A stretch of 58,581 bases of DNA from Nemertoderma westbladi (taxonomy: Eukaryota; Animalia; Xenacoelomorpha). A program made the translations under genes and the position numbers. The notes under the pieces are model-generated. The model made no database searches and was not told the DNA's origin. It worked only from the letters and a program-made list of their open reading frames with translations. Numbering within the stretch: position 1 is the first letter of the stretch; every line of letters starts with the position of its first letter. The DNA lies in the NCBI GenBank assembly GCA_032718475.1, contig JAUCBJ010008588.1:1-58581 (forward strand), in the 5' to 3' direction. This document shows, piece by piece, positions 13,295-43,900 of the stretch.

Positions 13295-13565
13295 GTTGGT
13301 TTTATGTCTACCCGGCCGCGGCCTATGCTGTAAATAATTACCACCATAGGCTACATAACACTTACTGCTAAAATCAGTACGTTGGAACTTAGAGTACTCA
13401 ATCTACTATCCAAAGCTACTGTATATGGATTTAAAACGATACTATAGTGAACCATTCAAATTTTTTCAACACAACAACCACACAGGTTCTACTGTACTGT
13501 ACTATTGTACCGTTTCTGGGTACTGGTTGTCTGGCTACTCTAAAAGTATTAGTATTTCCTCATAG

Positions 13566-13766: not shown

Positions 13767-15014
13767 TGTATAAAGTAGCACTTTATATAATTACACAACA
13801 AGGGTCGTATAAAGTAGCACTTTATATATATAATTACACAACGAGGGTCGTATAAAGTAGCACTTTATATATATAATTACACAACAAGGGTCGTATAAAG
13901 TAGCACTTTATATATATAATTACACAACGAGGGTCGTATAAAGTAGCACTTTATATATATAATTACACAACGAGGGTCGTATAAAGTAGCACTTTATATA
14001 TATAATTACACAACGAGGGTCGTATAAAGTAGCACTTTATATATATAATTACACAACGAGGGTCGTATAAAGTAGCACTTTATATATATAATTACACAAC
14101 GAGGGTCGTATAAAGTAGCACTTTATATATATATTTACACAACGAGGGTCGTATAAAGTAGCACTTTATATATATAATTACACAACGAGGGTCGTATAAA
14201 GTAGCACTTTATATATATATTTACACAACGAGGGTCGTATAAAGTAGCACTTTATATATATAATTACACAACGAGGGTCGTATAAAGTAGCACTTTATAT
14301 ATATATTTACACAACGAGGGTCGTATAAAGTAGCACTTTATATATATAATTACACAACGAGGGTCGTATAAAGTAGCACTTTATATATATAATTACACAA
14401 CGAGGGTCGTATAAAGTAGCACTTTATATATATAATTACACAACGAGGGTCGTATAAAGTAGCACTTTATATATATAATTACACAACGAGGGTCGTATAA
14501 AGTAGCACTTTATATATATAATTACACAACGAGGGTCGTATAAAGTAGCACTTTATATATATAATTACACAACGAGGGTCGTATAAAGTAGCACTTTATA
14601 TATATAATTACACAACGAGGGTCGTATAAAGTAGCACTTTATATATATAATTACACAACGAGGGTCGTATAAAGTAGCACTTTATATATATATTTACACA
14701 ACGAGGGTCGTATAAAGTAGCACTTTATATATATAATTACACAACGAGGGTCGTATAAAGTAGCACTTTATATATATATTTACACAACGAGGGTCGTATA
14801 AAGTAGCACTTTATATATATAATTACACAACGAGGGTCGTATAAAGTAGCACTTTATATATATATTTACACAACGAGGGTCGTATAAAGTAGCACTTTAT
14901 ATATATAATTACACAACGAGGGTCGTATAAAGTAGCACTTTATATATATATTTACACAACGAGGGTCGTATAAAGTAGCACTTTATATATATAATTACAC
15001 AACGAGGGTCGTAT
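13767..15014. repeat. 43-bp intronic tandem array, ~29 near-identical copies
   Basis: Unit cgtataaagtagcactttatatatataattacacaacgagggt; ten units span exactly 14021-14451. Confidence 0.97.
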
Positions 15015-15244
15015 AGTAGACAACTGATAGGCTATGTAATTTTATTCCCTAATTGGGACATTATCTATCAGTTGAAAAATAATTAAACAAATAATTCTAA
15101 CAAAAAATTTATCAACAACTGTTTTCAAAAAAAATTTGATTTTAACAGATAGTTTTATTTTTATGTTTAACAGTCAGTTATGTAAATAATAACTCGGTTG
15201 TTAAATAATTCCATAAAATATTATTTGAACTGCAGCAATTTTAG

Positions 15245-15464
15245 GTAAACTTAATTCCGATGGAGAATCCTCGACGGAATCGGAACCGGACTTCCCTGTA
15301 AATCCGGCATTCCGTCGCTACAAACAGAGGGATTTTACGTGTTTGAGAGGCGTCGAAGAGTTCAAACGGTTCCTAAAAGGAACTTATGGGATCAACTGTT
15401 GGAAACTTTGGGTTGATGTTGACCAGGCTAAGAGAACATTGAAGGATGACATTGACATACAGAA
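15245..15464 (+). CDS. RGS22: RGS22-like exon, first RGS-like domain (GVEEFKRFLKGTYGINCWKLWVDVD)
   Basis: ttttag acceptor, gtaggt donor, phase 1-2, RGS helix motif. Confidence 0.88.
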
Positions 15465-16415: not shown

Positions 16416-16607
16416 TATCCAAAGATCCCAACCGGAACCGTTGTTAAGGAAACAAATAGAGGCCAAACTATTCCAAAACCAGTTGCCTAACATTTCCGAA
16501 CAAATAAAGGCAGCGAGGGTTGAACTTCGTCGTAAATCTGCTTTTATTAGCAAGAAATCTGGAAGTGGTCAAAAGAGAAGAAAAAGTTCCAGAACAAACA
16601 GTGTAAG
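16416..16607 (+). CDS. RGS22: RGS22-like exon whose 3' end and donor seed the 51-bp array (minimal form)
   Basis: tgttag acceptor, in frame with ORF 16441. The first AG|gttggt donor (16608) gives the phase 2 required by exon 31142. Confidence 0.8.
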
Positions 16608-19600
16608 GTTGGTTACAGGTCAAAAGAGAAGGAAAAGTACCAGAACAAACAGTGTAAGGTTGGTTACAGGTCAAAAGAGAAGAAAAAGTACCAGAACAAA
16701 CAGTGTAAGGTTGGTTACAGGTCAAAAGAGAAGGAAAAGTGCCAGAACAAACAGTGTAGGGTTGGTTACAGGTCAAAAGAGAAGAAAAAGTACCAGAACA
16801 AACAGTGTAAGGTTGGTTACAGGTCAAAAGAGAAGGAAAAGTGCCAGAACAAACAGTGTAGGGTTGGTTACAGGTCGGAAGAGAAGGAAAAGTACCAGAA
16901 CAAACAGTGTAGGGTTGGTTACAGGTCGGAAGAGAAGGAAAAGTACCAGAACAAACAGTGTAAGGTTGGTTACAGGTCAAAAGAGAAGGAAAAGTGCCAG
17001 AACAAACAGTGTAGGGTTGGTTACAGGTAAGAAGAGAAGGAAAAGTGCCAGAACAAACAGTGTAAGATTGGTTACAGGTCAAAAGAGAAGGAAAAGTGCC
17101 AGAACAAACAGTGTAGGGTTGGTTACAGGTCGGAAGAGAAGGAAAAGTGCCAGAACAAACAGTGTAGGGTTGGTTACAGGTCGGAAGAGAAGGAAAAGTA
17201 CCAGAACAAACAGTGTAAGGTTGGTTACAGGTCAAAAGCGAAGAAAAAGTACCAGAACAAACAGTGTAAGGTTGGTTACAGGTCAAAAGAGAAGGAAAAG
17301 TGCCAGAACAAACAGTGTAGGGTTGGTTACAGGTCGGAAGAGAAGGAAAAGTGCCAGAACAAACAGTGTAGGGTTGGTTACAGGTCGGAAGAGAAGGAAA
17401 AGTACCAGAACAAACAGTGTAAGGTTGGTTACAGGTCAAAAGAGAAGGAAAAGTGCCAGAACAAACAGTGTAGGGTTGGTTACAGGTAAGAAGAGAAGGA
17501 AAAGTGCCAGAACAAACAGTGTAAGATTGGTTACAGGTCAGAAGAGAAGAAAAAGTGCAAGAACAAACAGTGTAAGGTTGGTTACAGGTCAAAAGCGAAG
17601 AAAAAGTTCCAGAACAAACAGTGTAGGGTTGGTTACAGGTCAAAAGAGAAGGAAAAGTGCCAGAACAAACAGTGTAGGGTTGGTTACAGGTAAGAAGAGA
17701 AGGAAAAGTGCCAGAACAAACAGTGTAAGGTTGGTTACAGGTCAAAAGAGAAGGAAAAGTGCCAGAACAAATAGTGTAAGGTTAGTTATAGGTCAGAAGA
17801 GAAGGAAAAGTGCCAGAACAAACAGTGTAAGGTTGGTTACAGGTCAGAAGAGAAGGGAAAGTGCAAGAACAAACAGTGTAAGATTGGTTACAGGTCAAAA
17901 GAGAAGAAAAAGTGCAAGAACAAACAGTGTAAGATTGGTTACAGGTCAGAAGAGAAGAAAAAGTGCAAGAACAAACAGTGTAAGGTTGGTTACAGGTCAA
18001 AAGAGAAGGAAAAGTGCCAGAACAAACAGTGTAGGGTTGGTTACAGGTCAAAAGAGAAGGAAAAGTGCCAGCACAAACAGTGTAGGGTTGGTTACAGGTC
18101 AAAAGAGAAGGAAAAGTGCCAGAACAAATAGTGTAAGGTTAGTTATAGGTCAGAAGAGAAGGAAAAGTGCCAGAACAAACAGTGTAAGGTTGGTTACAGG
18201 TCAGAAGAGAAGGGAAAGTGCAAGAACAAACAGTGTAAGATTGGTTACAGGTCAAAAGAGAAGAAAAAGTGCAAGAACAAACAGTGTAAGATTGGTTACA
18301 GGTCAAAAGAGAAGGAAAAGTGCCAGAACAAACAGTGTAGGGTTGGTTACAGGTCGGAAGAGAAGGAAAAGTACCAGAACAAACAGTGTAAGGTTGGTTA
18401 CAGGTCAAAAGAGAAGGAAAAGTGCCAGAACAAACAGTGTAGGGTTGGTTACAGGTAAGAAGAGAAGGAAAAGTGCCAGAACAAACAGTGTAAGATTGGT
18501 TACAGGTCAGAAGAGAAGAAAAAGTGCAAGAACAAACAGTGTAAGGTTGGTTACAGGTCAAAAGCGAAGAAAAAGTTCCAGAACAAACAGTGTAGGGTTG
18601 GTTACAGGTCAGAAGAGAAGGAAAAGTACCAGAACAAACAGTGTAAGGTTGGTTACAGGTCAAAAGAGAAGGAAAAGTGCCAGAACAAACAGTGTAGGGT
18701 TGGTTACAGGTAAGAAGAGAAGGAAAAGTGCCAGAACAAACAGTGTAAGATTGGTTACAGGTCAGAAGAGAAGAAAAAGTGCAAGAACAAACAGTGTAAG
18801 GTTGGTTACAGGTCAAAAGCGAAGAAAAAGTTCCAGAACAAACAGTGTAGGGTTGGTTACAGGTCAAAAGAGAAGGAAAAGTGCCAGAACAAACAGTGTA
18901 GGGTTGGTTACAGGTAAGAAGAGAAGGAAAAGTGCCAGAACAAACAGTGTAAGGTTGGTTACAGGTCAAAAGAGAAGGAAAAGTGCCAGAACAAATAGTG
19001 TAAGGTTAGTTATAGGTCAGAAGAGAAGGAAAAGTGCCAGAACAAACAGTGTAAGGTTGGTTACAGGTCAGAAGAGAAGGGAAAGTGCAAGAACAAACAG
19101 TGTAAGATTGGTTACAGGTCAAAAGAGAAGAAAAAGTGCAAGAACAAACAGTGTAAGGTTGGTTACAGGTCAGAAGAGAAGGAAAAGTGCAAGAACAAAC
19201 AGTGTAAGATTGGTTACAGGTCAAAAGAGAAGAAAAAGTGCCAAAAACAAACAGTGTAAGGTTGGTTACAGGTCAGAAGAGAAGGAAAAGTACCAGAACA
19301 AACAGTGTAAGGTTGGTTACAGGTCAGAAGAGAAGGAAAAGTGCCAGAACAACTAGTGTAAGGTTGGTTACAGGTCAGAAGAGAAGGAAAAGTGCCAGAA
19401 CAAACAGTGTAAGATTGGTTACAGGTCAGAAGAGAAGGAAAAGTGCAAGAACAAACAGTGTAAGATTGGTTACAGGTCAGAAGAGAAGGAAAAGTGCCAG
19501 AACAACTAGTGTAAGGTTGGTTACAGGTCAGAAGAGAAGGAAAAGTGCCAGAACAAACAGTGTAAGATTGGTTACAGGTCAGAAGAGAAGGAAAAGTGCC

Positions 19601-22600
19601 AGAACATCTAGTGTAAGGTTGGTTACAGGTCAGAAGAGAAGGAAAAGTGCCAAAAACAAACAGTGTAAGGTTGGTTACAGGTCAGAAGAGAAGGAAAAGT
19701 GCCAGAACAACTAGTGTAAGGTTGGTTACAGGTCAGAAGAGAAGGAAAAGTGCAAGAACAAACAGTGTAAGATTGGTTACAGGTCAGAAGAGAAGGAAAA
19801 GTGCCAGAACATCTAGTGTAAGGTTGGTTACAGGTCAGAAGAGAAGGAAAAGTGCCAAAAACAAACAGTGTAAGGTTGGTTACAGGTCAGAAGAGAAGGA
19901 AAAGTGCCAAAAACAAACAGTGTAAGGTTGGTTACAGGTCAGAAGAGAAGGAAAAGTGCTTGAACAAACAGTGTAGGGTTGGTTACAGGTCAAAAGAGAA
20001 GGAAAAGTGCCAGAACAAACTGTGTAAGGTTAGTTAGTTATAGGTCAGAAGAGAAGGAAATGTGCCAGAACAAATAGTGTAAGGTTAGTTAGTTATAGGT
20101 CAGAAGAGAAGGAAAAGTGCCAGAACAAACTGTGTAAGGTTAGTTAGTTATAGGTCAGAAGAGAAGGAAATGTGCCAGAACAAATAGTGTAAGGTTGGTT
20201 ACAGGTCAAAAGAGAAGGAAAAGTGCCAGAACAAACAGTGTAAGGTTGGTTATAGGTCAGAAGAGAAGGAAAAGTGCCAGAACAAACAGTGTAAGATTGG
20301 TTACAGGTCAAAAGAGAAGGAAAAGTGCCAAAAACAAACAGTGTAAGATTGGTTACAGGTCAGAAGAGAAGGAAAAGTGCCGGAACAAACAGTGCAAGGT
20401 TGGTTACAGATCAGAAGAGAAGGAAAAGTGCCAGAACAAACAGTGTAAGATTGGTTACAGGTCAGAAGAGAAGGAAAAGTGCCAAAAACAAACAGTGTAA
20501 GGTTGGTTACAGGTCAAAAGAGAAGGAAAAGTGCCAGAACAAACAGTGCAAGGTTGGTTACAGATCAGAAGAGAAGGAAAAGTGCCAGAACAAATAATGT
20601 AAGGTTGGTTACAGGTCAGAAGAGAAGGAAAAGTGCCAAAAACAAACAGTGTAAGGTTGGTTACAGGTCAGAAGAGAAGGAAAAGTGCCAGAACAAACAG
20701 TGTAAGATTGGTTACAGGTCAGAAGAGATGGAAAAGTGCCAAAAACAAACAGTGTAAGATTGGTTACAGGTCAGAAGAGAAGGAAAAGTGCCAAAACAAA
20801 CAGTATAAGTTTGGTTACAGGTCAGAAGAGAAGGAAAAGTACCGGAACAAACAGTGCAAGGTTGGTTACAGATCAGAAGAGAAGGAAAAGTGCCAGAACA
20901 AACAGTGTAAGATTGGTTACAGGTCAGAAGAGTAGGAAATGTGCCAGAACAAACAGTGTAAGGTTGGTTACAGGTCAGAAGAGAAGGAAAAGTGCCATAA
21001 ACAAACAGTGTAAGGTTGGTTACAGGTCAGAAGAGAAGGAAAAGTGCCAAAACAAACAGTGTAAGATTGGTTACAGGTCAGAAGAGTAGGAAATGTGCCA
21101 GAACAAACAGTGTAAGGTTGGTTACAGATCAGAAGAGAAGGAAAAGTGCCAGAACAAACAGTGTAAGATTGGTTACAGGTCAGAAGAGTAGGAAATGTGC
21201 CAGAACAAACAGTGTAAGGTTGGTTACAGGTCAGAAGAGAAGGAAAAGTGCCAAAACAAACAGTGTAAGATTGGTTACAGGTCAGAAGAGTAGGAAATGT
21301 GCCAGAACAAACAGTGTAAGGTTGGTTACAGATCAGAAGAGAAGGAAAAGTGCCAGAACAAACAGTGTAAGATTGGTTACAGGTCAGAAGAGTAGGAAAT
21401 GTGCCAGAACAAACAGTGTAAGGTTGGTTACAGGTCAGAAGAGAAGGAAAAGTGCCAAAAACAAACAGTGTAAGGTTGGTTATAGGTCAGAAGAGAAGGA
21501 AAAGTGCCAGAACAAACAGTGTAAGATTGGTTACAGGTCAGAAGAGTAGGAAATGTGCCAGAACAAACAGTGTAAGGTTGGTTACAGGTCAGAAGAGAAG
21601 GAAAAGTGCCAAAAACAAACAGTGTAAGGTTGGTTACAGGTCAGAAGAGAAGGAAAAGTGCCAAAACAAACAGTGTAAGATTGGTTACAGGTCAGAAGAG
21701 AAGGAAAAGTACCGGAACAAACAGTGCAAGGTTGGTTACAGATCAGAAGAGAAGGAAAAGTGCCAGAACAAACAGTGTAAGGTTGGTTACAGGTCAGAAG
21801 AGAAGGAAAAGTGCCAAAACAAACAGTATAAGTTTGGTTACAGGTCAGAAGAGAAGGAAAAGTACCGGAACAAACAGTGCAAGGTTGGTTACAGATCAGA
21901 AGAGAAGGAAAAGTGCCAGAACAAACAGTGTAAGATTGGTTACAGGTCAGAAGAGTAGGAAATGTGCCAGAACAAACAGTGTAAGGTTGGTTACAGGTCA
22001 GAAGAGAAGGAAAAGTGCCAAAAACAAACAGTGTAAGGTTGGTTACAGGTCAGAAGAGTAGGAAATGTGCCAGAACAAACAGTGTAAGGTTGGTTACAGG
22101 TCAGAAGAGAAGGAAAAGTGCCAAAAACAAACAGTGTAAGGTTGGTTACAGGTCAGAAGAGAAGGAAAAGTGCCAAAAACAAACAGTGTAAGGTTGGTTA
22201 CAGGTCAGAAGAGAAGGAAAAGTGCCGGAACAAACAGTGCAAGGTTGGTTACAGATCAGAAGAGAAGGAAAAGTGCCAGAACAAACAGTGTAAGATTGGT
22301 TACAGGTCAGAAAAGAAGGAATAGTGCCATAACAAATAATGTAAGGTTGTTTACAGGTCAGAAGAGAAGGAAAAGTGCCAAAAACAAACAGTGTAAGGTT
22401 GGTTACAGGTCAGAAGAGAAGGAAAAGTGCCAAAAACAAACAGTGTAAGGTTGGTTACAGGTCAAAAGAGAAGAAAAAGTGCCAGAACAACAGTGTAAGG
22501 TTGGTTGCAGGTCAGAAGAGAAGGAAAAGTGCAAGAACAAACAGTGTAAGGTTGGTTACAGGTCAAAAGAGGAGAAGGAAAAGTGCCAAAAACAAACAGT

Positions 22601-25600
22601 GTAAGGTTGGTTACAGGTCAAAAGAGAAGAAAAAGTGCCAGAACAACAGTGTAAGGTTGGTTGCAGGTCAGAAGAGAAGGAAAAGTGCAAGAACAAACAG
22701 TGTAAGATTGGTTACAGGTCAAAAGAGAAGGAAAAGTGCCAAAAACAAACAGTGTAAGGTTGGTTACAGGTCAAAAGAGAAGAAAAAGTGCCAGAACAAC
22801 AGTGTAAGGTTGGTTATAGGTCAGAAGAGAAGGAAAAGTGCCAGAACAAACAGTGTAAGGTTGGTTATAGGTCAGAAGAGAAGGAAAAGTGCCAAAAACA
22901 AACAGTGTAAGGTTGGTTACAGGTCAAAAGAGAAGAAAAAGTGCCAGAACAACAGTGTAAGGTTGGTTGCAGGTCAGAAGAGAAGGAAAAGTGCAAGAAC
23001 AAACAGTGTAAGGTTGGTTGCAGGTCAAAAGAGAAGGAAAAGTGCCAAAAACAAACAGTGTAAGGTTGGTTACAGGTCAAAAGAGAAGAAAAAGTGCCAG
23101 AACAACAGTGTAAGGTTGGTTGCAGGTCAGAAGAGAAGGAAAAGTGCAAGAACAAACAGTGTAAGATTGGTTACAGGTCAAAAGAGAAGGAAAAGTGCCA
23201 GAACAAACAGTGTAAGGTTAGTTACAGGTCAAAAGAGAAGGAAAGGTGCCAGAACAACAGTGTAAGGTTGGTTACAGGTCAGAAGAGAAAGAAAAGTGCC
23301 AAAACAAACAGTATAAGTTTGGTTACAGGTCAGAAGAGAAGGAAAAGTGCCGGAACAAACAGTGCAAGGTTGGTTACAGATCAGAAGAGAAGGAAAAGTG
23401 CCAGAACAAACAGCATAAGGTTGGTTACAGGTCAGAAGAGAAAGAAAACTGCCAGAACAAATAATGTAAGGTTGGTTACAGGTCAGAAGAGAAGGAAAAG
23501 TGCCAAAAACAAACAGTGTAAGGTTGGTTACAGGTCAGAAGAGAAGGAAAAGTGCCAAAACAAACAGTATAAGTTTGGTTACAGGTCAGAAGAGAAGGAA
23601 AAGTGCCGGAACAAACAGTGCAAGGTTGGTTACAGATCAGAAGAGAAGGAAAAGTGCCAGAACAAACAGTGTAAGATTGGTTACAGGTCAGAAGAGTAGG
23701 AAAAGTGCCAGAACAAACCGTGTAAGGTTGGTTACAGGTCAGAAGAGAAGACAAAGTGCCAGAACAAACAGTGTAAGGTTGGTTTCAGGTCAGAAGAGAA
23801 GACAAAGTGCCAGAACAAACAGCATAAGGTTGGTTACAGGTCAGAAGAGAAAGAAAACTGCCAGAACAAATAATGTAAGGTTGGTTACAGGTCAGAAGAG
23901 AAGGAAAAGTGCCAAAAACTAACAGTGTAAGGTTGGTTACAGGTCAGAAGAGAAGGAAAAGTGCCAGAACAAACAGTGTAAGGTTGGTTACAGGTCAAAA
24001 GAGAAGGAAAAGTGCAAGAACAAACAGTGTAAGATTGGTTACAGGTCAAAAGAGAAGGAAAAGTGCCAGAACAACAGTGTACGTTTGGTTACAGGTCAGA
24101 AGAGAAGGAAAAGTGCCAGAACAAATAGTGTAAGGTTAGTTACAGGTCAGAAGAGAAGGAAAAGTGCAAGAACAACAGTGTAAGGTTGGTTACAGGTCAG
24201 AAGAGAAGGAATAGTGCCAGAACAAATAGTGTAAGGTTGGTTACAGGTCAGAAGAGAAGGACTAGTGCCAGAACAAATAGTGTAAGGTTGGTTACAGGTC
24301 AGAAAAGAAGGAATAGTGCCAGAACAAATAATGTAAGGTTGGTTACAGGTCAGAAGAGAAGGAAAAGTGCCAAAAACAAACAGTGTAAGGTTGGTTACAG
24401 GTCAGAAGAGAAGGAAAAGTGCAAGAACAAACAGCCTAAGATTGGTTACAGGTCAAAAGAGAAGGAAAAGTGCCAGAACAACAGTGTACATTTGGTTATA
24501 GGTCAAAAGAGAAGGAAAAGTGCCAGAACAACAGTGTACGTTTGGTTACAGGTCAGAAGAGAAGGAAAAGTGCCAGAACAAATAGTGTAAGGTAAGTTAC
24601 AGGTCAGAAGAGAAGGAAAAGTGCAAGAACAACAGTGTAAGGTTGGTTACAGGTCAGAAGAGAAGGAATAGTGCCAGAACAAATAGTGTAAGGTTGGTTA
24701 CAGGTCAGAAGAGAAGGAAAAGTGCCAGAACAAACAATGTAAGGTTGGTTACAGGTCAGAAGAGAAGGAAAAGTGCCAGAACAAACAGTGTAAGGTTGGT
24801 TACAAGTCAGAAGAGAAGGAAAAGTGCCAGAACAAATAATGTAAGGTTGGTTACAGGTCAGAAGAGAAGGAAAAGTGCCAAAAACAAACAGTGTAAGGTT
24901 GGTTACAGGTCAGAAGAGAAGGAAAAGTGCCAGAACAAACAGTGTAAGGTTGGTTACAGGTCAAAAGAGAAGGAAAAGTGCCAGAACAAATAATGTAAGG
25001 TTGGTTACAGGTCAGAAGAGAAGGAAAAGTACCAAAAACAAACAGTGTAAGGTTGGTTAGGTTACAGGTCAGAAGAGAAGGAAAAGTGCAAGAACAAACA
25101 GTGTAAGATTGGTTACAGGTCAAAAGAGAAGGAAAAGTGCCAAAAACAAACAGTGTAAGGTTGGTTACAGGTCAGAAGAGAAGGAAAAGTGCCAAAAACA
25201 AACAGTGTAAGGTTGGTTACAGGTCAGAAGAGAAGGAAAAGTGCCAGAACAAACAATGTAAGGTTGGTTACAGGTCAGAAGAGAAGGAAAAGTGCCAGAA
25301 CAAACAGTGTAAGGTTGGTTACAAGTCAGAAGAGAAGGAAAAGTCCCAGAACAAATAATGTAAGGTTGGTTACAGGTCAGAAGAGAAGGAAAAGTGCCAG
25401 AACAAACAATGTAAGGTTGGTTACAGGTCAGAAGAGAAGGAAAAGTGCCAGAACAAACAGTGTAAGGTTGGTTACAAGTCAGAAGAGAAGGAAAAGTGCC
25501 AGAACAAATAATGTAAGGTTGGTTACAGGTCAGAAGAGAAGGAAAAGTGCCAGAACAAACAGTGTAAGGTTGGTTACAAGTCAGAAGAGAAGGAAAAGTG

Positions 25601-28600
25601 CCAGAACAAATAATGTAAGGTTGGTTACAGGTCAGAAGAGAAGGAAAAGTGCAAGAACAAACAGTGTGAGGTTGGTTACAGGTCAGAAGAGAAGGAAAAG
25701 TACCAAAAACAAACAGTGTAAGGTTGGTTAGGTTACAGGTCAGAAGAGAAGGAAAAGTGCAAGAACAAACAGTGTAAGATTGGTTACAGGTCAAAAGAGA
25801 AGGAAAAGTACCAGAACAAACAGTGTAAGGTTGGTTACAGCTCAGAAGAGAAGGAAAAGTGCCAAAAACAAACAGTGTAAGGTTAGTTATAGGTCAGAAG
25901 AGAAGGAAAAGTGCCAAAAACAAACAGTGTAAGGTTGGTTACAGGTCATAAGAGAAGGAAAAGTGCCAAAGCAAACAGTATAAGTTTGGTTACAGGTCAG
26001 AAGAGAAGGAAAAGTGCCGGAACAAACAGTGTAAGATTGGTTACAGGTCAGAAGAGAAGGAAAAGTGCCAAAAATAAACAGTGTAAGGTTAGTTATAGGT
26101 CAGAAGAGAAGGAAAAGTGCCAAAAACAAACAGTGTAAGGTTGGTTACAGGTCAGAAGAGAAGGAAAAGTGCCAAAGCAAACAGTATAAGTTTGGTTACA
26201 GGTCAGAAGAGAAGGAAAAGTGCCGGAACAAACAGTGTAAGATTGGTTACAGGTCAGAAGAGAAGGAAAAGTGCCAAAAACAAACAGTGTAAGATTGGTT
26301 ATAGGTCAGAAGAGAAGGAAAAGTGCCAGAACAAACAGTGTAAGGTTAGTTATAGGTCAGAAGAGAAGGAAAAGTGCCAAAAACAAACAGTGTAAGGTTG
26401 GTTACAGGTCAGAAGAGAAGGAAAAGTGCCAAAGCAAACAGTATAAGTTTGGTTACAGGTCAGAAGAGAAGGAAAAGTGCCGGAACAAACAGTGTAAGAT
26501 TGGTTACAGGTCAGAAGAGAAGGAAAAGTGCCAAAAACAAACAGTGTAAGGTTGGTTACAGGTCAGAAGAGAAGGAAAAGTACCAAAGCAAACAGTATAA
26601 GTTTGGTTACATCTCAGAAGAGAAGGAAAAGTGCCGGAACAAACAGTGCAAGGTTGGTTACAGATCAGAAGAGAAGGAAAAGTGCCAGAACAAACAGTGT
26701 AAGATTGGTTACAGGTCAGAAGAGTAGGAAAAGTGCCAGAACAAACAGTGTAAGGTTGGTTACAGGTCAGAAGAGAAGGAAAAGTGCCAAAAACAAACAG
26801 TGTAAGATTGGTTACAGGTCAAAAGAGAAGGAAAAGTGCCAAAAACAAACAGTGTAAGGTTGGTTACAGGTCAGAAGAGAAGGAAAAGTGCCGGAACAAA
26901 CAGTGCAAGGTTGGTTACAGATCAGAAGAGAAGGAAAAGTGCCAGAACAAACAGTGTAAGATTGGTTACAGGTCAGAAGAGTAGGAAAAGTGCCAGAACA
27001 AACAGTGTAAGGTTGGTTACAGGTCAGAAGAGAAGGAAAAGTGCCAAAAACAAACAGTGTAAGATTGGTTACAGGTCAAAAGAGAAGGAAAAGTGCCAAA
27101 AACAAACAGTGTAAGGTTGGTTACAGGTCAAAAGAGAAGGAAAAGTGCCAAAACAAACAGTATAAGTTTGGTTACAGGTCAGAAGAGAAGGAAAAGTGCC
27201 GGAACAAACAGTGCAAGATTGGTTACAGGTCAAAAGAGAAGGAAAAGTGCCAAAACAAACAGTATAAGTTTGGTTACAGGTCAGAAGAGAAGGAAAAGTG
27301 CCGGAACAAACAGTGTAAGGTTGGTTACAGATCAGAAGAGAAGGAAAAGTGCCAGAACAAACAGTGTAAGATTGGTTACAGGTCAGAAAAGAAGGAATAG
27401 TGCCAGAACAAATAATGTAAGGTTGTTTACAGGTCAGAAGAGAAGGAAAAGTGCCAAAAACAAACAGTGTAAGGTTGGTTACAGGTCAGAAGAGAAGGAA
27501 AAGTGCCAAAACAAACAGTATAAGTTTGGTTATAGGTCAGAAGAGAAGGAAAAGTGCCGGAACAAACAGTGCAAGATTGGTTACAGGTCAAAAGAGAAGG
27601 AAAAGTGCCAAAACAAACAGTATAAGTTTGGTTACAGGTCAGAAGAGAAGGAAAAGTGCCGGAACAAACAGTGCAAGGTTGGTTACAGATCAGAAGAGAA
27701 GGAAAAGTGCCAGAACAAACAGTGTAAGATTGGTTACAGGTCAGAAAAGAAGGAATAGTGCCAGAACAAATAATGTAAGGTTGTTTACAGGTCAGAAGAG
27801 AAGGAAAAGTGCCAAAAACAAACAGTGTAAGGTTGGTTACAGGTCAGAAGAGAAGGAAAAGTGCCAAAACAAACAGTATAAGTTTGGTTATAGGTCAGAA
27901 GAGAAGGAAAAGTGCCGGAACAAACAGTGCAAGGTTGGTTACAGATCAGAAGAGAAGGAAAAGTGCCAGAACAAACAGTGTAAGATTGGTTACAGGTCAG
28001 AAGAGTAGGAAAAGTGCCAGAACAAACAGTGTAAGGTTGGTTACAGGTCAGAAGAGAAGACAAAGTTCCAGAACAAACAGTGTAAGGTTGGTTTCAGGTC
28101 AGAAGAGAAGACAAAGTGCCAGAACAAACAGCATAAGATTGGTTACAGGTCAGAAGAGAAGAAAAGTGCTAGAACAAACAGTATAAGGTTGGTTACAGGT
28201 CGGAAGAGAAGACAAAGTGCCAGAACAAATAGTGTAAGGTTGGTTACAGGTCAGAAGAGAAGGAAAAGTGCAAGAACAAACAGTGTAAGGTTGGTTATAG
28301 GTCAGAAGAGAAGAAAAAGTGCCAGAATAAACAGCATAAGGTTGGTTACAGGTCAGAAGAGAAGGAAAAGTGCCAGAACAAACAGTGTAAGGTTGATTAT
28401 AGGTCAGAAGAGAAGGAAAAGTGCCCGAACAAATGGTGTAAGGTTAGTTATAGGTCAGAAGAGAAGGAAAAGTGCCAGAACAAACAGTGTAAGGTTGGTT
28501 ACAGGTCAGAAGAGAAGGAAAAGTGCCAGAACAAACAGTGTAAGGTTGGTTATAGGTCAGAAGAGAAGAAAAAGTGCCAGAATAAACAGCATAAGGTTGG

Positions 28601-29334
28601 TTACAGGTCAGAAGAGAAGGAAAAGTGCCAGAACAAACAGTGTAAGTTTGGTTACAGGTCAGAAGAGAAAGAAAAGTGCCAGGACAAACAATATAAGTTT
28701 GGTTACAGGTCAGAAGAGAAGGAAAAGTGCCTGAACAAACAGTGTAAGGTTGATTATAGGTCAGAAGAGAAGGAAAAGTGCCCGAACAAATGGTGTAAGG
28801 TTAGTTATAGGTCAGAAGAGAAGGAAAAGTGCAAGAACAAACAGTGTAAGATTGGTTACAGGTCAAAAGAGAAGGAAAAGTGCCTGAACAAACAGTGTAA
28901 GGTTGATTATAGGTCAGAAGAGAAGGAAAAGTGCCCGAACAAATGGTGTAAGGTTGGTTACAGGTCAGAAGAGAAGGAAAAGTGCAAGAACAAACAGTGT
29001 AAGATTGGTTACAGGTCAGAAGAGAAGGAAAAGTGCCAGAATAAACAGCATAAGGTTGGTTACAGGTCAGAAGAGAAGGAAAAGTGCCAGAACAAACAGT
29101 GTAAGTTTGGTTACAGGTCAGAAGAGAAAGAAAAGTGCCAGGACAAACAATATAAGTTTGGTTACAGGTCAGAAGAGAAAGAAAAGTGCCAGGACAAACA
29201 ATATAAGTTTGGTTACAGGTCAGAAGAGAAGGAAAAGTGCCCGAACAAATGGTGTAAGGTTGGTTTCAGGTCAGAAGAGAAGGAAATGTGCCAGAACAAA
29301 CAGTGTAGGGTTGGTTATAGGTCAGAAGAGAAGA

Positions 29335-29531
29335 TGTGCATTAATTATATTTTAACGCGATTTTAATTGAATATACCGCTGAAGACGCCCGCGAGGGTGA
29401 AATGGCCATACGGTAAATAATTAACTTCATTTTTTATATATCCACGTGGTGAAAGACCCTTCCTTGCCTTTATTAATCCTGTAATTATGAATACGCCACG
29501 TAAAACGTCATTCCGGTTAATCCAAAACCTA
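29335..29531 (+). mobile_element. ~195-bp insertion in the array, probable Penelope-like element pLTR fragment
   Basis: Unique sequence interrupts a repeat unit (gtgca...agaacaaac) and carries a minimal hammerhead motif of the kind found in Penelope-like elements. Confidence 0.65.
29374..29415 (+). ncRNA. Minimal type I hammerhead ribozyme
   Basis: Stem I taccg/cggta; core CUGAAGA; stem II gccc-GCGA-gggt; GAAA; palindromic stem III aTGGCCAt; AUA cleavage triplet with predicted cut after 29410. Confidence 0.8.
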
Positions 29532-29841
29532 AGAACAAACAGTGTAAGGTTGGTTATAGGTCAAAAGAGAAGGAAAAGTGCAAGAACAAACAGTGTAAGG
29601 TTAGTTACAGGTCAAAAGAGAAGGAAAAGTGCAAGAACAAACAGTGTAAGATTGGTTACAGGTCAGAAGAGACGGAATAGTGCCAGAACAACAGTGTAAG
29701 GTTGGTTACAGGTCAGAAGAGAAGGAAAAGTGCTTGAACAAACAGTGTAAGGTTGGTTACAGGTCAGAAGAGAAGGAAAAGTTCCAGAACAACAGTGTAA
29801 GGTTGGTTACAGGTCAGAAGAGAAGGAAAAGTGCGAGAACA

Positions 29842-30523
29842 AACAGGGGCGATAGGTTCCTGGAGCATTAGGTCCCGCACCGCGATATATAACCAGGGGC
29901 GATAGGTTCCTGGAGCATTAGATCCCGCACCGCGATATATAACCAGGGGCGATAGGTTCCTGAAGCATTAGGTCCCGCACCGCGATATATAACCAGGGGC
30001 GATAGGTTCATGGAGCATTAGATCCCGCACCGCGATATATAACCAGGGGCGATAAGTTCCTGGAGCATTAGGTCCCTCACCGCGATATATAACCAGGGAC
30101 AATAGGTTCCTGGAGCATTAGGTCCCGCGCCGCGATATATAACCAGGGGCGATAGGTTCCTGGAGCATTAGGTCCCGCACCGCGATATCTCATCAGGGCG
30201 ATAGGTTCCTTGAGCATTAGGTCCCGCACCGCGATATCTCATCAGGGGCGACAGGTTCCTGGAGCATTAGGTCCCGCACCGCGATATATAACCAGGGGCG
30301 ATAGGTTCCTGGAGCATTAGGTCCCGCACCGCGATATCTCATCAGGGCGATAGGTTCCTTGAGCATTAGGTCCCGCACCGCGATATCTCATCAGGGGCGA
30401 CAGGTTCCTGGAGCATTAGGTCCCCCACCGCGATATCTCATCAGGGGCGACAGGTTCCTGGAGCATTAGGTCCCCCACCGCGATATCTCATCAGGGGCGA
30501 CAGGTTCCTGGAGCATTAGGTCC
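29842..30523. repeat. 50-bp tandem array, ~13-14 copies
   Basis: Unit aaccaggggcgataggttcctggagcattaggtcccgcaccgcgatatat; it directly abuts the 51-bp array. Confidence 0.96.
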
Positions 30524-31141
30524 TGCAGCAGAAAGGGTCAGGTTTGTAAAGGAGCAGGATTCAGAGGCAGCGATCGGGGAGCCTAACAACAAACTAAAGT
30601 TAACGTGCAGGTTAGTAAAGAGTTACATTCGGAAAAGTGCTACTTTCGGACTGTAAGTTTAAAGGGCAGGATACTGCATCGTTAGGGCCTGAGATTTTCA
30701 GGGAAAGGTTTACTGCGATATGTTATTCTACCCAAAAAAATAAACGAAAGTCAATAGCACATGTTATACAGCTTATTTTTGCTAGAAATCAGTTAATACT
30801 GTACTAAAAAATTCAATTGCTACAAAAATAATACAAATACAATTCCCTAACAACGCAAGACCTACTGACCAAAGGACACCATTTAAACGTGAAGCAGCGA
30901 AAGTGAATGAGGTTATTTTTAGTGGAAAGAGATTAATATTAGTGGAAAATTAATAATTTTAGTGGAAGTTGATTAAATTTTAAATTATTTTTAGTGAAAT
31001 AAGATTATATTTGGTTGGATACAAAGTTAAAAATAGTTAAAAATATTTTTAATGGAAATCCAATTACAAAACGTGGATAATAATAATTATTGGTTAAGGA
31101 AAAATTTAGTGGGAAATAAATTTGTTGCGTTAATTTAACAG

Positions 31142-31305
31142 ATCGTCATCAGTCGCATCAAATACTTCGTCAGTTGGGAGTGGCGTATCAGGGAAGGCGT
31201 CAGAGACATCGGTTGTTACCAAACTCACTGCTATGGGGGATTACACGGCATCGTTAAGGGTAGAAACATTACTACAGGCATTACGTCACGAATACTACAA
31301 CTCAG
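31142..31305 (+). CDS. RGS22: RGS22-like exon (SSSVASN...VETLLQALRHEYYNS)
   Basis: ttaacag acceptor, CAG|gtaggt donor, phase 2-1. Confidence 0.85.
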
Positions 31306-31546: not shown

Positions 31547-31689
31547 GTGGATTCTTCTATCACTTTGTTAAGGACAGCCAGAAACAGCTGTGGATTAATT
31601 GTCTCGAGTTTTGGCACGAATTACAATCTTATCACTCAACATTCTATTCCCACATCATCGACGCTAATTTACTTCAAAAGAAATCCAAA
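31547..31689 (+). CDS. RGS22: RGS22-like exon, second RGS-like domain (GFFYHF...CLEFWHELQSYH)
   Basis: acatag acceptor, gtaaga donor, phase 1-0, RGS FW motif. Confidence 0.9.
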
Positions 31690-31756
31690 GTAAGATATTA
31701 TGTAAATACGGTAAAATAAGTTTGTGTTTCATATTAGGTTGTATTACATGGCGACT

Positions 31757-33566
31757 ATGTAGGCCTACTTGTGGATCTTCTAATGATGCACTGTTATCAT
31801 TTACAGTATTATATGTAGGCCTACTTGTGGATCTTCTAATGATGCACTGTTATCATTTACAGTATTATATGTAGGCCTACCTGTGGATCTGCTAATGATG
31901 CACTGTATTACATGGCGACTATGTAGGCCTACTTCTGGATCTTCTAATGATGCACTGTTATCATATACAGTATTATATGTAGGCCTACTTGTGGATCTTC
32001 TAATGATGTACTGTTATCATATACAGTATTATATGTAGGCCTACTTGTGGATCTTCTAATGATGCACTGTTATCATTTACAGTATTATATGTAGGCCTAC
32101 TTGTGGATCTTCTAATGATGCACTGTTATCATTTACAGTATTATATGTAGGCCTACTTGTGGATCTTCTAATGATGCACTGTTATCATTTACAGTATTAT
32201 ATGTAGGCCTACTTGTGGATCTTCTAATGATGCACTGTTATCATTTACAGTATTATATGTAGGCCTACTTGTGGATCTTCTAATGATGCACTGTTATCAT
32301 TTACAGTATTATATGTAGGCCTACTTGTGGATCTTCTAATGATGCACTGTTATCATTTACAGTATTATATGTAGGCCTACTTGTGGATCTTCTAATGATG
32401 CACTGTTATCATTTACAGTATTATATGTAGGCCTACTTGTGGATCTTCTAATGATGCACTGTTATCATTTACAGTATTATATGTAGGCCTACTTGTGGAT
32501 CTTCTAATGATGCACTGTTATCATTTACAGTATTATATGTAGGCCTACTTGTGGATCTTCTAATGATGCACTGTTATCATTTACAGTATTATATGTAGGC
32601 CTACTTGTGGATCTTCTAATGATGCACTGTTATCATTTACAGTATTATATGTAGGCCTACTTGTGGATCTTCTAATGATGTACTGTTATCATATACAGTA
32701 TTATATGTAGGCCTACTTGTGGATCTTCTAATGATGCACTGTTATCATTTACAGTATTATATGTAGGCCTACTTGTGGATCTTCTAATGATGCACTGTTA
32801 TCATTTACAGTATTATATGTAGGCCTACTTGTGGATCTTCTAATGATGCACTGTTATCATTTACAGTATTATATGTAGGCCTACTTGTGGATCTTCTAAT
32901 GATGCACTGTTATCATTTACAGTATTATATGTAGGCCTACTTGTGGATCTTCTAATGATGCACTGTTATCATTTACAGTATTATATGTAGGCCTACTTGT
33001 GGATCTTCTAATGATGCACTGTTATCATTTACAGTATTATATGTAGGCCTACTTGTGGATCTTCTAATGATGCACTGTTATCATTTACAGTATTATATGT
33101 AGGCCTACTTGTGGATCTTCTAATGATGCACTGTTATCATTTACAGTATTATATGTAGGCCTACTTGTGGATCTTCTAATGATGCACTGTTATCATTTAC
33201 AGTATTATATGCAGGCCTACTTGTGGATCTTCTAATGATGCACTGTTATCATTTACAGTATTATATGTAGGCCTACTTGTGGATCTTCTAATGATGCACT
33301 GTTATCATTTACAGTATTATATGTAGGCCTACTTGTGGATCTTCTAATGATGCACTGTTATCATTTACAGTATTATATGTAGGCCTACTTGTGGATCTTC
33401 TAATGATGCACTGTTATCATTTACAGTATTATATGTAGGCCTACTTGTGGATCTTCTAATGATGCACTGTTATCATTTACAGTATTGTATGTAGGCCTAC
33501 CTGTGGATCTGCTAATGATGCACTGTATTACAACGCGACTATGTAGGCCTACTTGTGGATCTTCTA
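31757..33566 (+). repeat. 56-bp tandem array, ~32 copies, resembling the downstream 3' splice site
   Basis: Unit tattatatgtaggcctacttgtggatcttctaatgatgcactgttatcatttacag; the real acceptor is tgttatcatttacag|ttgttatat at 33602. Confidence 0.97.
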
Positions 33567-33602
33567 AGACGTACTTGTGACACTGTTTGTTATCATTTAC
33601 AG

Positions 33603-33797
33603 TTGTTATATCGCCAGTACGTGGAGGAATGTTCTACCTCGTCTATCGCTGCGCCCCCTAGCGTGCGATCAGATATTTTGCGACGTTTGGATCCGCCGTT
33701 TGAGGATTTATTTGATGCGGCTGAAGAAATAGCATTGTTCGTCCTGCGCGAGCCCTGGGATCAGTTGAAGAATGCGGAAAAAGCGTCGGCCAATAAG
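33603..33797 (+). CDS. RGS22: RGS22-like exon (LLYRQY...LDPPFEDLFDAAEE...EPW)
   Basis: tttacag acceptor, AAG|gtaact donor, phase 0-0, conserved motif. Confidence 0.92.
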
Positions 33798-34371: not shown

Positions 34372-35379
34372 CTAGAGTTCCCCAGCGGACGCCTCTAGCG
34401 GCGCCGCTGTCTGGGCGGTCTCCCCCCCGTCGACGAGCCGCCACAACCCGTACGGCTCCCCGACCTGCTGCTGCCACAGTCGCACTGTGCCGTCCTCGCT
34501 GGCGCTCGCGTAGACGGCCCCGTCGGGCGCGTAGACGACTGCGTGGACCGGCCCGAAGTGCGACTTACTGGCGCCCAACTGCATCCCAGACTCGAGTTCG
34601 TAGCGGTAGACCAGATGGTCCGCGCCCCCGACCACCATGTAGTCCGGGAGGTGCGAGGCGGCGGTCAGCGCCTCGCAGGGCAGTCGGACTGTCTGCAGAC
34701 AGTCGAAGCGTTCCGCGTCATACAGATAGACGCGGGTCCCGCTGCAGACGAGCAGCCGTCGTCCGTCGGCCGTGAACGCGAGTCCGCGGATCGGATCCTC
34801 GAACATCCGGCCCCGGATGTCCGTCCGGAGACGGTGGAGGTCCCACTTCCGTAGCGAGCGGTCCTCGGCGCAGCTGAACGCGAAGGCCCCGCAGCGGGAG
34901 ACCGCCAGGTCCCGGATCGACTGCTCGTGGCCCTCGAGCACCGTCGGAGTCGCGTCCGGCCGCTCCAGGTCGAACAAGTTGAGGAGTTTCTCGGCACCGC
35001 CGGTTAACAGGTACCGCGTGTCCTCCGAGAAGTCGACCGCCTTTACGATGTGTTTGTGTTCGAAAGTGTGCAGCTCGGAACCGGTTTCAGCGTCCCAGAG
35101 TTTCGTCGTAAAGTCAGCGGAACCCGTCGCGCAACGGGTCCCTTCCCCGTTGATCACGCAGCTCCAAACGGCGCCTTTGTGTCCCTCGAAGGTCCCCAAC
35201 CAATCGCCGGTAGCTCCATCTCGCAGCATCGGTTTGCCGTCTTTAGACGCACTCAATAGTAGGAAGTTAACATCGTCGGCGTCGTCTAGGACTTTGCTGT
35301 AACTCAGGTCTACTACCGGTCGTGTGTGCCCCGGGCATATAAGTGGCATCTGTTTCAAGTTGTTGGGAAGTAAAGACAT
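34372..35379 (-). CDS. STRAP: Serine-threonine kinase receptor-associated protein (STRAP/UNRIP, WD40), intronless CDS nested antisense in an RGS22 intron
   Basis: Complete 335-aa ORF with the STRAP signatures PLICPGHTRPVVDL, SASKDGKPMLRDGATGDWLGTFEGHKGAVW, HKHIVK and HFGPVH..YASASEDGTVRLW. Confidence 0.95.
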   Translation of the reverse strand: MSLLPNNLKQMPLICPGHTRPVVDLSYSKVLDDADDVNFLLLSASKDGKPMLRDGATGDWLGTFEGHKGAVWSCVINGEGTRCATGSADFTTKLWDAETGSELHTFEHKHIVKAVDFSEDTRYLLTGGAEKLLNLFDLERPDATPTVLEGHEQSIRDLAVSRCGAFAFSCAEDRSLRKWDLHRLRTDIRGRMFEDPIRGLAFTADGRRLLVCSGTRVYLYDAERFDCLQTVRLPCEALTAASHLPDYMVVGGADHLVYRYELESGMQLGASKSHFGPVHAVVYAPDGAVYASASEDGTVRLWQQQVGEPYGLWRLVDGGETAQTAAPLEASAGEL

Positions 35380-37750: not shown

Positions 37751-37940
37751 GTTGAAACAGTTGATGTAAAAAGAGAATTGGAAAAGTTAAAGTCGGAATT
37801 ATCGAGCCAATTGGAAAGGAAAGGTTTACTGAGGAGGAAAGTTTTACAACACGAACCTGAGATATCGGAAAAGGAGTTACGAGAGCGATTATACAAAAAA
37901 CTGGAAGCTAAAGTTAGTAAAGCGTGGGACAAATACAGCG
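37751..37940 (+). CDS. RGS22: RGS22-like exon (VETVDVK...KAWDKYS); alternative end at 38000
   Basis: aattag acceptor, G|gtgagc donor, phase 0-1. Confidence 0.8.
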
Positions 37941-38004
37941 GTGAGCGATTATACAAAAAACTGGAAGCTAAAGTTAGTAAAGCGTGGGACAAATACAGCG
38001 GTGA
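37883..38004 (+). repeat. Perfect 60-bp tandem duplication spanning the exon end and donor
   Basis: gagcgattatacaaaaaactggaagctaaagttagtaaagcgtgggacaaatacagcggt occurs twice. Confidence 0.97.
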
Positions 38005-40908: not shown

Positions 40909-43900
40909 CACTAGGATACATCGTCCACTCACACCACTACGATACATCGTCCACACAACTAGGATACATCGTCCACACCACTAGGATACATCGTCCACAC
41001 CACTAGGATACATCGTCCACCTACACCACTAGGATACAACGTCCACACCACTACGATACATCGTCCACCCACACCACTACGATACATCGTCCACCCACAC
41101 CACTACGATACATCGTCCACCCAAACCACTACGATATATCGTCCACCCACACCACTACGATACATCGTCCACCCACACCACTAGGATACATCGTCCACCC
41201 AAACCACTACGATATATCGTCCACCCACACCACTAGGATACATCGTCCACCCACACCACTAGGATACATCGTCCACCCACATCACTAGGATACATCGTCC
41301 ACCCAAACCACTACGATATATCGTCCACCCACACCACTAGGATACATCGTCCACCCACACCACTACGATACATCGTCCACCCACACCACTACGATACATC
41401 GTCCACCCAAACCACTACGATATATCGTCCACCCACACCACTACGATACATCGTCCACCCACACCACTAGGATACATCGTCCACCCAAACCACTACGATA
41501 TATCGTCCACCCACACCACTAGGATACATCGTCCACCCACACCACTACGATACATCGTCCACCCACACCACTACGATACATCGTCCACCCAAACCACTAC
41601 GATATATCGTCCACCCACACCACTAGGATACATCGTCCACCCACACCACTAGGATACATCGTCCACACAACTAGGATACATCGTCCACACCACTAAGATA
41701 CAGCGTCCACCTACACCACAAGGATTCATCGTCCACACCACTACGATACAACATCCACACCACTAGGATACATCGTCCACACAACTAGGATACATCGTCC
41801 ACACCACTAGGATACATCGTCCACCCACACCACTAGGATACATCATCCACACAACTAGGATACATCGTCCACATCACTAGGATACATCGTCCACAACACT
41901 AGGATACATCGTCCACCCACATCACTAGGATACATCGTCCACACAACTACGATACATCGTCCACCCACACCACTACGATACATCGTCCACCCAAACCACT
42001 ACGATATATCGTCCACCCACACCACTAGGATACATCGTCCACCCACACCACTAGGATACATCGTCCACCCACATCACTAGGATACATCGTCCACACAACT
42101 AGGATACATCGTCCACCCACACCACTAGGATACATCGTCCACCCACACCACTAGGATACATCGTCCACCCACACCACTAGGATACATTGTCCACACCACT
42201 ACGATACATCGTCCGCACCACTACGATACATCGTCCACACCACTAGGATAAATCGTCCACACAACTAGGATACATCGTCCACCTACACCACTAGGATTCA
42301 TCGTCCTCAGCACTACGATACATCGTCCACACCACTAGGATACATCGTCCACACCACTACGATACACCGTCCACACCACTAGGATACATCGTCCACCTAC
42401 ACCACTAGGATACATCGTCCACACCACTAGGATACTTCGCCACACCACTACGATATATCGTCCACCCACACCACTAGGATATATCGTCCACACCACTAGG
42501 ATACATCGTCCACCCACACCACTAGGATATATCGTCCACACCACTAGGATAAATCGTCCACACCACTAGGATACATCGTCCACCTACACCACTAGGATTC
42601 ATCGTCCTCAGCACTACGATACATCGTCCACACCACTAGGATACATCGTCCACACCACTACGATACACCGTCCACACCACTAGGATACATCGTCCACCTA
42701 CACCACTAGGATACATCGTCCACACCACTAGGATACATCGTCCACACCACTAGGATACATCGTCCACCCACACCACTAGGATATATCGTCCACACCACTA
42801 CGATACATCGTCCACACCACTAGGATATATCGTCCACCTACACCACTAGGATGCATCGTCCACACCACTAGGATACATCGTCCACCCACACCACTAGGAT
42901 ATATCGTCCACACTACTACGATACATCGTCCACACCACTACGATACACCGTCCACACCACTAGGATACATCGTCCACCTACACCACTAGGATACATCGTC
43001 CACACCACTAGGATACATCGTCCACCCACACCACTAGGATATATCGTCCACACCACTATGATACATCGTCCACACCACTAGGATATATCGTCCACACCAC
43101 TAGGATACATCGCCCACACCTCTAGGATATATCGTCCACCCACACCACTAGGATACATCGTCCACACCACTAGGATATATCGTCCACCTACACCACTAGG
43201 ATACATCGTCCACACCACTAGGATACATCGTCCACACCACTAGGATACATCGTCCACCCACACCACTATGATATATCGTCCACACCACTACGATACATCA
43301 TCCACACCACTAGGATACATCGTCCACACCACTAGGATACATCGTCCACACCACTAGGATACATCGTCCACACCCCTAGGATATATCGCCCACACCACTA
43401 CGATACATCGTCCACACCACTAGGATACATCGTCCACACCACTAGGATACATCATCCACACCACTAAGATACATCGTCCACACCACTAGGATACATCGTC
43501 CACACCACTAGGATACATCGTCCACACCACTAGGATACATCGTCCACCCACACCACTAGGATATATCGTCCACACCACTACGATACAGCGTCCACCTACA
43601 CCACAAGGATTCATCGTCCACACCACTACGATACAACATCCACACCACAAGGATACATCGTCCACACAACTAGGATATATCATCCACCCACACCCCTAGG
43701 ATATATCGTCCACACCACTAGGATATATCGTCCACCTACACCACTAGGATACATCGTCCACACCACTAGGATACATCGTCCACACCACTAGGATACATCG
43801 TCCACCCACACCACTATGATATATCGTCCACACCACTACGATACATCATCCACACCACTAGGATACATCGTCCACACCACTAGGATACATCGTCCACACC

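Follow-up and report, generated by a model that had tools for sequence, protein, structure and literature searches.

The end of one exon, together with its splice donor, is repeated some 250 times within a predicted gene of the xenacoelomorph Nemertoderma westbladi, which raises the question of whether the additional copies are read as protein or removed as intron. We examined this question in a window of 58,581 bp (positions 1 to 58,581 of contig JAUCBJ010008588.1, the whole stretch of DNA that was analysed). An initial annotation of this DNA had proposed that a choice among the repeated donors could generate a ladder of protein isoforms differing in repeat number.

Matches to a solved structure identify the host gene as RGS22. 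When searched against solved structures, three of five exons had the RGS22 chain 9fqr_Ha of the PDB as their best match, in the correct order and with the correct spacing: exon 15245-15464 matched RGS22 residues 397-432, at the start of RGS domain 1 (E = 1.4e-4), and exons 31547-31689 and 33603-33797 matched residues 667-702 and 714-771, in RGS domain 2 (E = 1.5e-7 and 2.2e-8, respectively; all on the plus strand). The other two exons searched (15811 and 31142) gave no RGS22 match among solved structures. The domains matched are the first two of RGS22's four. Pfam returned a sub-threshold RGS match for one of 14 RGS22 pieces and nothing else, an Atlas search gave an RGS lead, and no relative emerged from word-based searches that used two single exons. 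According to the available text of PMC13443885, RGS22 is a radial-spoke protein of metazoans that carries four RGS-like domains, and the mouse protein has such domains at residues 408-530 and 664-779. These positions and the exon matches put the array in the linker between RGS domains 1 and 2, where the initial annotation had located it; in this respect the gene differs from the RGS22 of 9fqr_Ha.

The gene was represented by a 17-exon GT-AG model running from 6638 to 39890, with the gene ends falling outside it and with exon boundaries that are predictions from the open gene model. The exon that seeds the repeat (16416-16607, plus strand) ends at a predicted phase-2 donor, AAG|GTTGGT, at 16608, and the next exon (31142-31305, plus strand) begins with a predicted phase-2 acceptor. 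Joining the two leaves the model open for 1026 codons, so the phase logic originally put forward was sound. The predicted donor at 13295, elsewhere in the model, likewise reads GTTGGT. The exon that ends at the first donor is 192 nt long, as compared with 124-363 nt for the other exons of the model, and with this donor the anchor distance from domain 1 to domain 2 is 280 residues, versus 271 in 9fqr_Ha. The short form is therefore the conserved one, although this spacing leaves one unit and two indistinguishable.

Tandem Repeats Finder reported a 51-bp unit that recurs 249.3 times at 16567-29333 (91% matches), followed by another 6.2 copies at 29531-29846; our own tiling gave 254 units across 16567-29846 (~13 kb), in agreement with the original estimate of ~250 copies. 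The units are arranged head-to-tail, and the first spans the predicted exon-intron boundary. Each corresponds to the last 41 nt of the seeding exon (16567-16607) followed by 10 nt from the start of the intron; the unit is thus as first described, but its division (given as 40 and 11 nt) is shifted by one shared G. This anatomy agrees with the proposed origin by tandem duplication of the exon end and its donor. The unit is 72% purine, and the array as a whole contains 113 unit types in ordered higher-order duplications.

The first part of the array is distinct from the rest. Units 1-52 (16567-19218, plus strand) are all 51 nt long and free of stop codons, as had been claimed for approximately this number; they comprise 20 unit types, hold 42 in-frame donors of the authentic type, and if translated would yield 884 residues with a net charge of +299. 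The first +1 frameshift falls in unit 53 (19219-19270 in our tiling) and the first stop codon in the exon frame at 19354. Frameshifts and stops are abundant from there on (units 53-249, 19219-29333, plus strand), so that 63 of the 202 units numbered 53-254 are broken by one or the other, as compared with 0 of 52 before them. Near its distal end the array is interrupted by ~197 bp of non-repeat sequence (29334-29530), sampled 14-mers of which had no match elsewhere in the window. The last ~6 units (29531-29846, plus strand) adjoin an unrelated intronic minisatellite of 14 copies of a 50-bp unit (29844-30527). A 34-nt pattern from the unit had no match among metagenome contigs.

It is extremely improbable that the array was inflated or created during assembly. 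Its copy number does rest on one assembly, but the variety of unit types and the ordering of their higher-order duplications count against an artefact, as does the +1 insertion, which recurs as a single haplotype (35 of 38 units are identical around it) and, together with the lack of indels in units 1-52, is unlike random read error.

The array belongs to a known class, that of minisatellites spanning an exon-intron boundary. The available portions of PMC1557585 describe human members of this class with a first unit lying across the boundary, and the array shares with them (the 37-bp VNTR in F7 intron 7, and those in 6-16 intron 2, CBS intron 13, LMNB2 and PDGF intron 4) both that placement and a donor reiterated head-to-tail into the intron. 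It differs from them in size (~254 units over 13 kb versus 5-26 units), in the exonic share of the unit (41 of 51 nt, versus 4 of 37 nt in F7), and in having a unit that is a multiple of three with an open frame of 52 units. Lancelet ‘mirages’ (in Adh3, troponin C, the globins BflGb6 and BflGb9, and PGBD5), as described in the accessible parts of PMC3087553 and PMC3902484, are likewise tandem copies of exon boundaries in genes of an invertebrate, and leave splicing undisturbed. Both 5′ and 3′ boundary types occur among the mirages and in this RGS22 gene, but the present array is far larger, and three boundary duplications lie within the one gene. Boundary repeats in human duplicated genes, which are kept as amino-acid repeats or spliced out according to the available text of PMC2812944, differ in averaging ~4 units of 30 bp and in having transcript support.

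How donors are chosen in the human cases bears directly on the proposed ladder. In F7 the most upstream donor alone is used, mutating that donor shifts splicing to the next, and pseudo-sites of greater strength fail to compete; 6-16 (with 25 pseudo-sites) and CBS employ two extra donors, and LMNB2 and PDGF none (PMC1557585, available portions). The initial annotation had given hundreds of ignored decoy donors as its fallback; judged by these accounts they pose no paradox, such disregard being the documented norm of the class. A long ladder finds no such precedent, since donor use in the known cases is confined to the first or extends at most to the third, and in the parts of the boundary-minisatellite literature available to us no long donor ladder is reported. 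The accessible RGS22 literature likewise reports no such repeat, and the portions seen of PMC10078293 and PMC12776774 add nothing specific.

The array contains 176 donors of the authentic type, and 138 exact copies of AAG|GTTGGT are found in its 254 units. Only 42 of the 176, the last at 19158, give an open frame to acceptor 31142, fewer than the ~52 rungs that had been envisaged. The described variants that weaken, abolish or strengthen the donor are all present: units 1-52 carry 20 AAG|GTTGGT, 19 AGG|GTTGGT, 10 AAG|ATTGGT and 3 AAG|GTTAGT sites, and a consensus donor, AAG|GTAAGT, lies at 24592. A weakened or missing donor is seen in 29 of 52 proximal units versus 65 of 202 distal ones, the units not being independent of one another. 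Further GT sites, in other phases, are present in every unit and had been overlooked in the earlier inventory of donors. Among them are six near-consensus phase-1 donors, CAG|GTAAGA, in units 10-47 (at 17027, 17486, 17690, 18455, 18710 and 18914; span 17027-18919, plus strand), which are confined to the proximal block and do not keep the frame of exon 31142; they give an open frame only via an AG at 31153 or if that exon is skipped. Against the U1 consensus, CAG|GTAAGA matches at 8 of 9 positions, versus 6 for the authentic donor. A spliceosome working deep within the proximal block would meet these stronger, out-of-frame sites. We excluded a donor weight matrix as evidence, because GTTGGT is among the 16 predicted donors on which it was built, and it therefore favours that motif.

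Two other candidates for the first donor were rejected: AGT|GTAAGG at 16603 breaks the frame with acceptor 31142, as does CAG|GTCAAA at 16619, which gives an open frame only if an AG at 31153 is used or if splicing skips ahead to 31547. We likewise set aside recursive splicing within the array, whose AGs are preceded by 0-5 pyrimidines in the upstream 14 nt versus 7-11 at the gene's 17 predicted acceptors.

In a ladder, the authentic-type donors would each take a few percent of transcripts, in-frame mRNAs (from donors in units 1-51, plus sites at 19272 and 19323) would be kept and later ones degraded, and selection would hold the proximal block in frame. The purine-rich unit could enhance each next donor, as SR-protein sites do. 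We consider such a ladder quite unlikely. The 42 in-frame donors with an open frame, the proximal weakening of donors and the short three-donor ladders of 6-16 and CBS (PMC1557585, in its available parts) all speak for it, but the behavior of F7, in which the first site prevails, and the presence of six stronger out-of-frame donors inside the block speak against it, and selection would act only weakly on distant, seldom used units.

The proximal block could instead be a single long coding exon, in which all 52 units (~2.8 kb) are read through before splicing at approximately 19158-19323 or termination at the stop at 19354, and which would insert 884 residues of basic repeat into the RGS22 linker. 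After the +1 shift, the CAG|GTCAGA donors at 19272 and 19323 (plus strand, within 19219-19356) fall in phase 2 and are open to exon 31142, and unit 53 forms a sharp boundary for both indels and non-synonymous variants. Those two sites, however, are indistinguishable from the 42 in-frame sites upstream or from 128 CAG|GTCAGA sites further downstream, and the domain spacing would become ~1150 residues versus 271 in the solved RGS22. Moreover, a search of the exon with four units against 1.84 billion representatives gave two matches, both to unrelated repeat proteins. A long exon is accordingly improbable. Either it or a ladder would explain a clean, synonymous-rich block, but would have to bypass the stronger out-of-frame donors.

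Variation among the units bears on whether the proximal block might be translated. Synonymous variants account for 7 of 15 in units 1-52 versus 15 of 58 distally, as compared with 22% of possible changes, and piN/piS is 0.24 proximally versus 0.52 distally (permutation p = 0.02-0.09, with transitions and transversions matched). Among variants with at least 10 distal copies, all 6 synonymous but only 1 of 10 non-synonymous ones are also seen proximally (p = 0.0009, for a statistic chosen post hoc); with the same post hoc statistic p is 0.008 when linked variants are merged and 0.025 without the frequency cut. The pattern is absent from every other 52-unit block (of eight) and is strongest in the RGS22 frame among the six, with a weak echo in the antisense frame that has the same third positions. 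This enrichment and sharing, which a ladder could also account for, is suggestive of coding constraint on the array's first fifth. Against a ladder, 8 of the 15 proximal variants alter an amino acid; three of the four variants private to the block are non-synonymous. Frame-breaking mutation events (0 of 15 proximally versus 7 of 64 distally) do not differ (p = 0.21), the proximal block contains internal duplications that reach 9 units in length, and two arrays of the same window (43 and 56 bp), whose periods are not multiples of three, also stay free of indels for ~27 units, although their units are more uniform.

Six common synonymous variants (unit positions 6, 15, 24, 33, 42 and 45) are spread over almost the entire array, and most common non-synonymous variants begin at unit 53 or later. 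This distribution would fit a past constraint, whereby the array, while it was small, underwent translation or swapped sequence with the real, constrained exon copy, leaving its oldest array-wide variants synonymous, and has since fallen silent. We regard this as very improbable: the position-42 variant abolishes the donor and so cannot derive from the real exon copy, and several synonymous changes within 41 nt would point to a great age.

We then compared these patterns with neutral simulations (1500 runs in five settings, of which 723 were retained by conditioning on 12-40% broken units). A clean first run of at least 52 units arose in 95 of the 723 conditioned runs, the sharing signal alone in 44 of the 1389 runs in which it was defined, and a clean run together with the sharing signal in 3 of 723, the sharing statistic again being post hoc. 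The neutral model is crude, producing 70-82 unit types versus the 113 observed; an earlier simulation without intra-unit recombination fitted worse (43-64 types) and gave similar rates.

Boundary duplication is a habit of this RGS22 locus. A second array in the same gene (31756-33567, plus strand; ~32 copies of a 56-bp unit) copies the acceptor of exon 33603 together with a few exon-like bases; of its 31 acceptor sites the 30 decoys all break the frame, and only the last, real site is open. The third case is an exact 60-bp duplication of an exon end and its donor (37883-38004, plus strand), in which the donors at 37913 and 37973 are both in frame and would give products that differ by 20 residues. 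Decoy splice sites are evidently tolerated here, if the gene is functional.

Other features were observed in the window. An intronic minisatellite at 13768-15015 (29 copies of 43 bp) begins ~30 nt past a donor, and downstream of the last modelled RGS22 exon a 17.7-kb array of 22/26-bp units (40909-58576) runs up to the window end. Of the 51,944 bp between the start of the first modelled exon (6638) and that end, 34,799 bp lie in tandem arrays. An intronless, GC-rich, STRAP-like WD40 gene of 335 residues, whose best relatives are at most 50% identical, is nested antisense in an RGS22 intron (34372-35379, minus strand). At ~100-2900 on the minus strand lies a 933-codon open frame extending toward the window start and containing an alanine/lysine-rich repeat (2017-2221); as a guess, this frame could be a retroelement gag-like gene.

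We conclude that the array is probably a mostly silent minisatellite, in which the first donor at 16608 is the one likely to be used, with leakage at most to the next one or two. It may have been seeded by slippage at the exon end and have grown through slippage or unequal exchange and local block duplication. The most upstream functional donor would be selected, as in F7, nearly the whole array would thereby be removed as intron, and transcripts spliced at out-of-frame donors would decay. Minor leakage to units 2-3 would lengthen a low-complexity linker by 17 or 34 residues, possibly without harm. The clean proximal block could reflect a recent block duplication of ~20 unit types beside the constrained, real exon copy.

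We favor this mostly silent reading on several grounds: the use of the first donor in F7, the lack of extra donors in LMNB2 and PDGF and the undisturbed splicing of mirages (in the sources as available); the near-native domain spacing and ordinary exon length obtained with the first donor; the 30 unproductive acceptors in the same gene and the share of the locus filled by arrays; the persistence of the six out-of-frame CAG|GTAAGA donors in units 10-47; the lack of a difference in frame-breaking events and the indel-free runs of arrays with other periods; and the long internal duplications, the mostly non-synonymous private variants and the frequency of clean runs under neutrality. Counting against it are the piN/piS and sharing contrasts and the rarity with which neutral runs combined both signals, the excess of weakened or lost donors in the proximal block, and the fact that the precedents are human and lancelet, with stated copy numbers (in the portions available) of at most 26. 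The clean, synonymous-rich run of units 1-52 lends genuine, if minority, support to the originally proposed isoform ladder. Translation reaching deep into this block is unlikely, if by no means negligible. It is doubtful that the block is translated with its repeat length (1 to ~53 copies of a basic 17-residue peptide per protein) set by the choice of donor rather than by allele length, and just as doubtful that, as part of the same joint reading, the distal 200 units would act as a sink filtered by transcript decay.

Among the known cases compared, as their sources describe them in the parts available, the array is exceptional in size. If it is silent, it would constitute an extreme natural test of first-donor selection, with 175 downstream donor copies over 13 kb, some of the downstream donors being stronger than the real one, and with a copy number ~10-fold above the largest stated for the class in those sources. 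Should the proximal block prove to be translated, the product would be a splice-tuned repeat protein on a scale well past that of the three-donor ladders described for 6-16 and CBS, and the repeat would sit in a ciliary radial-spoke subunit.
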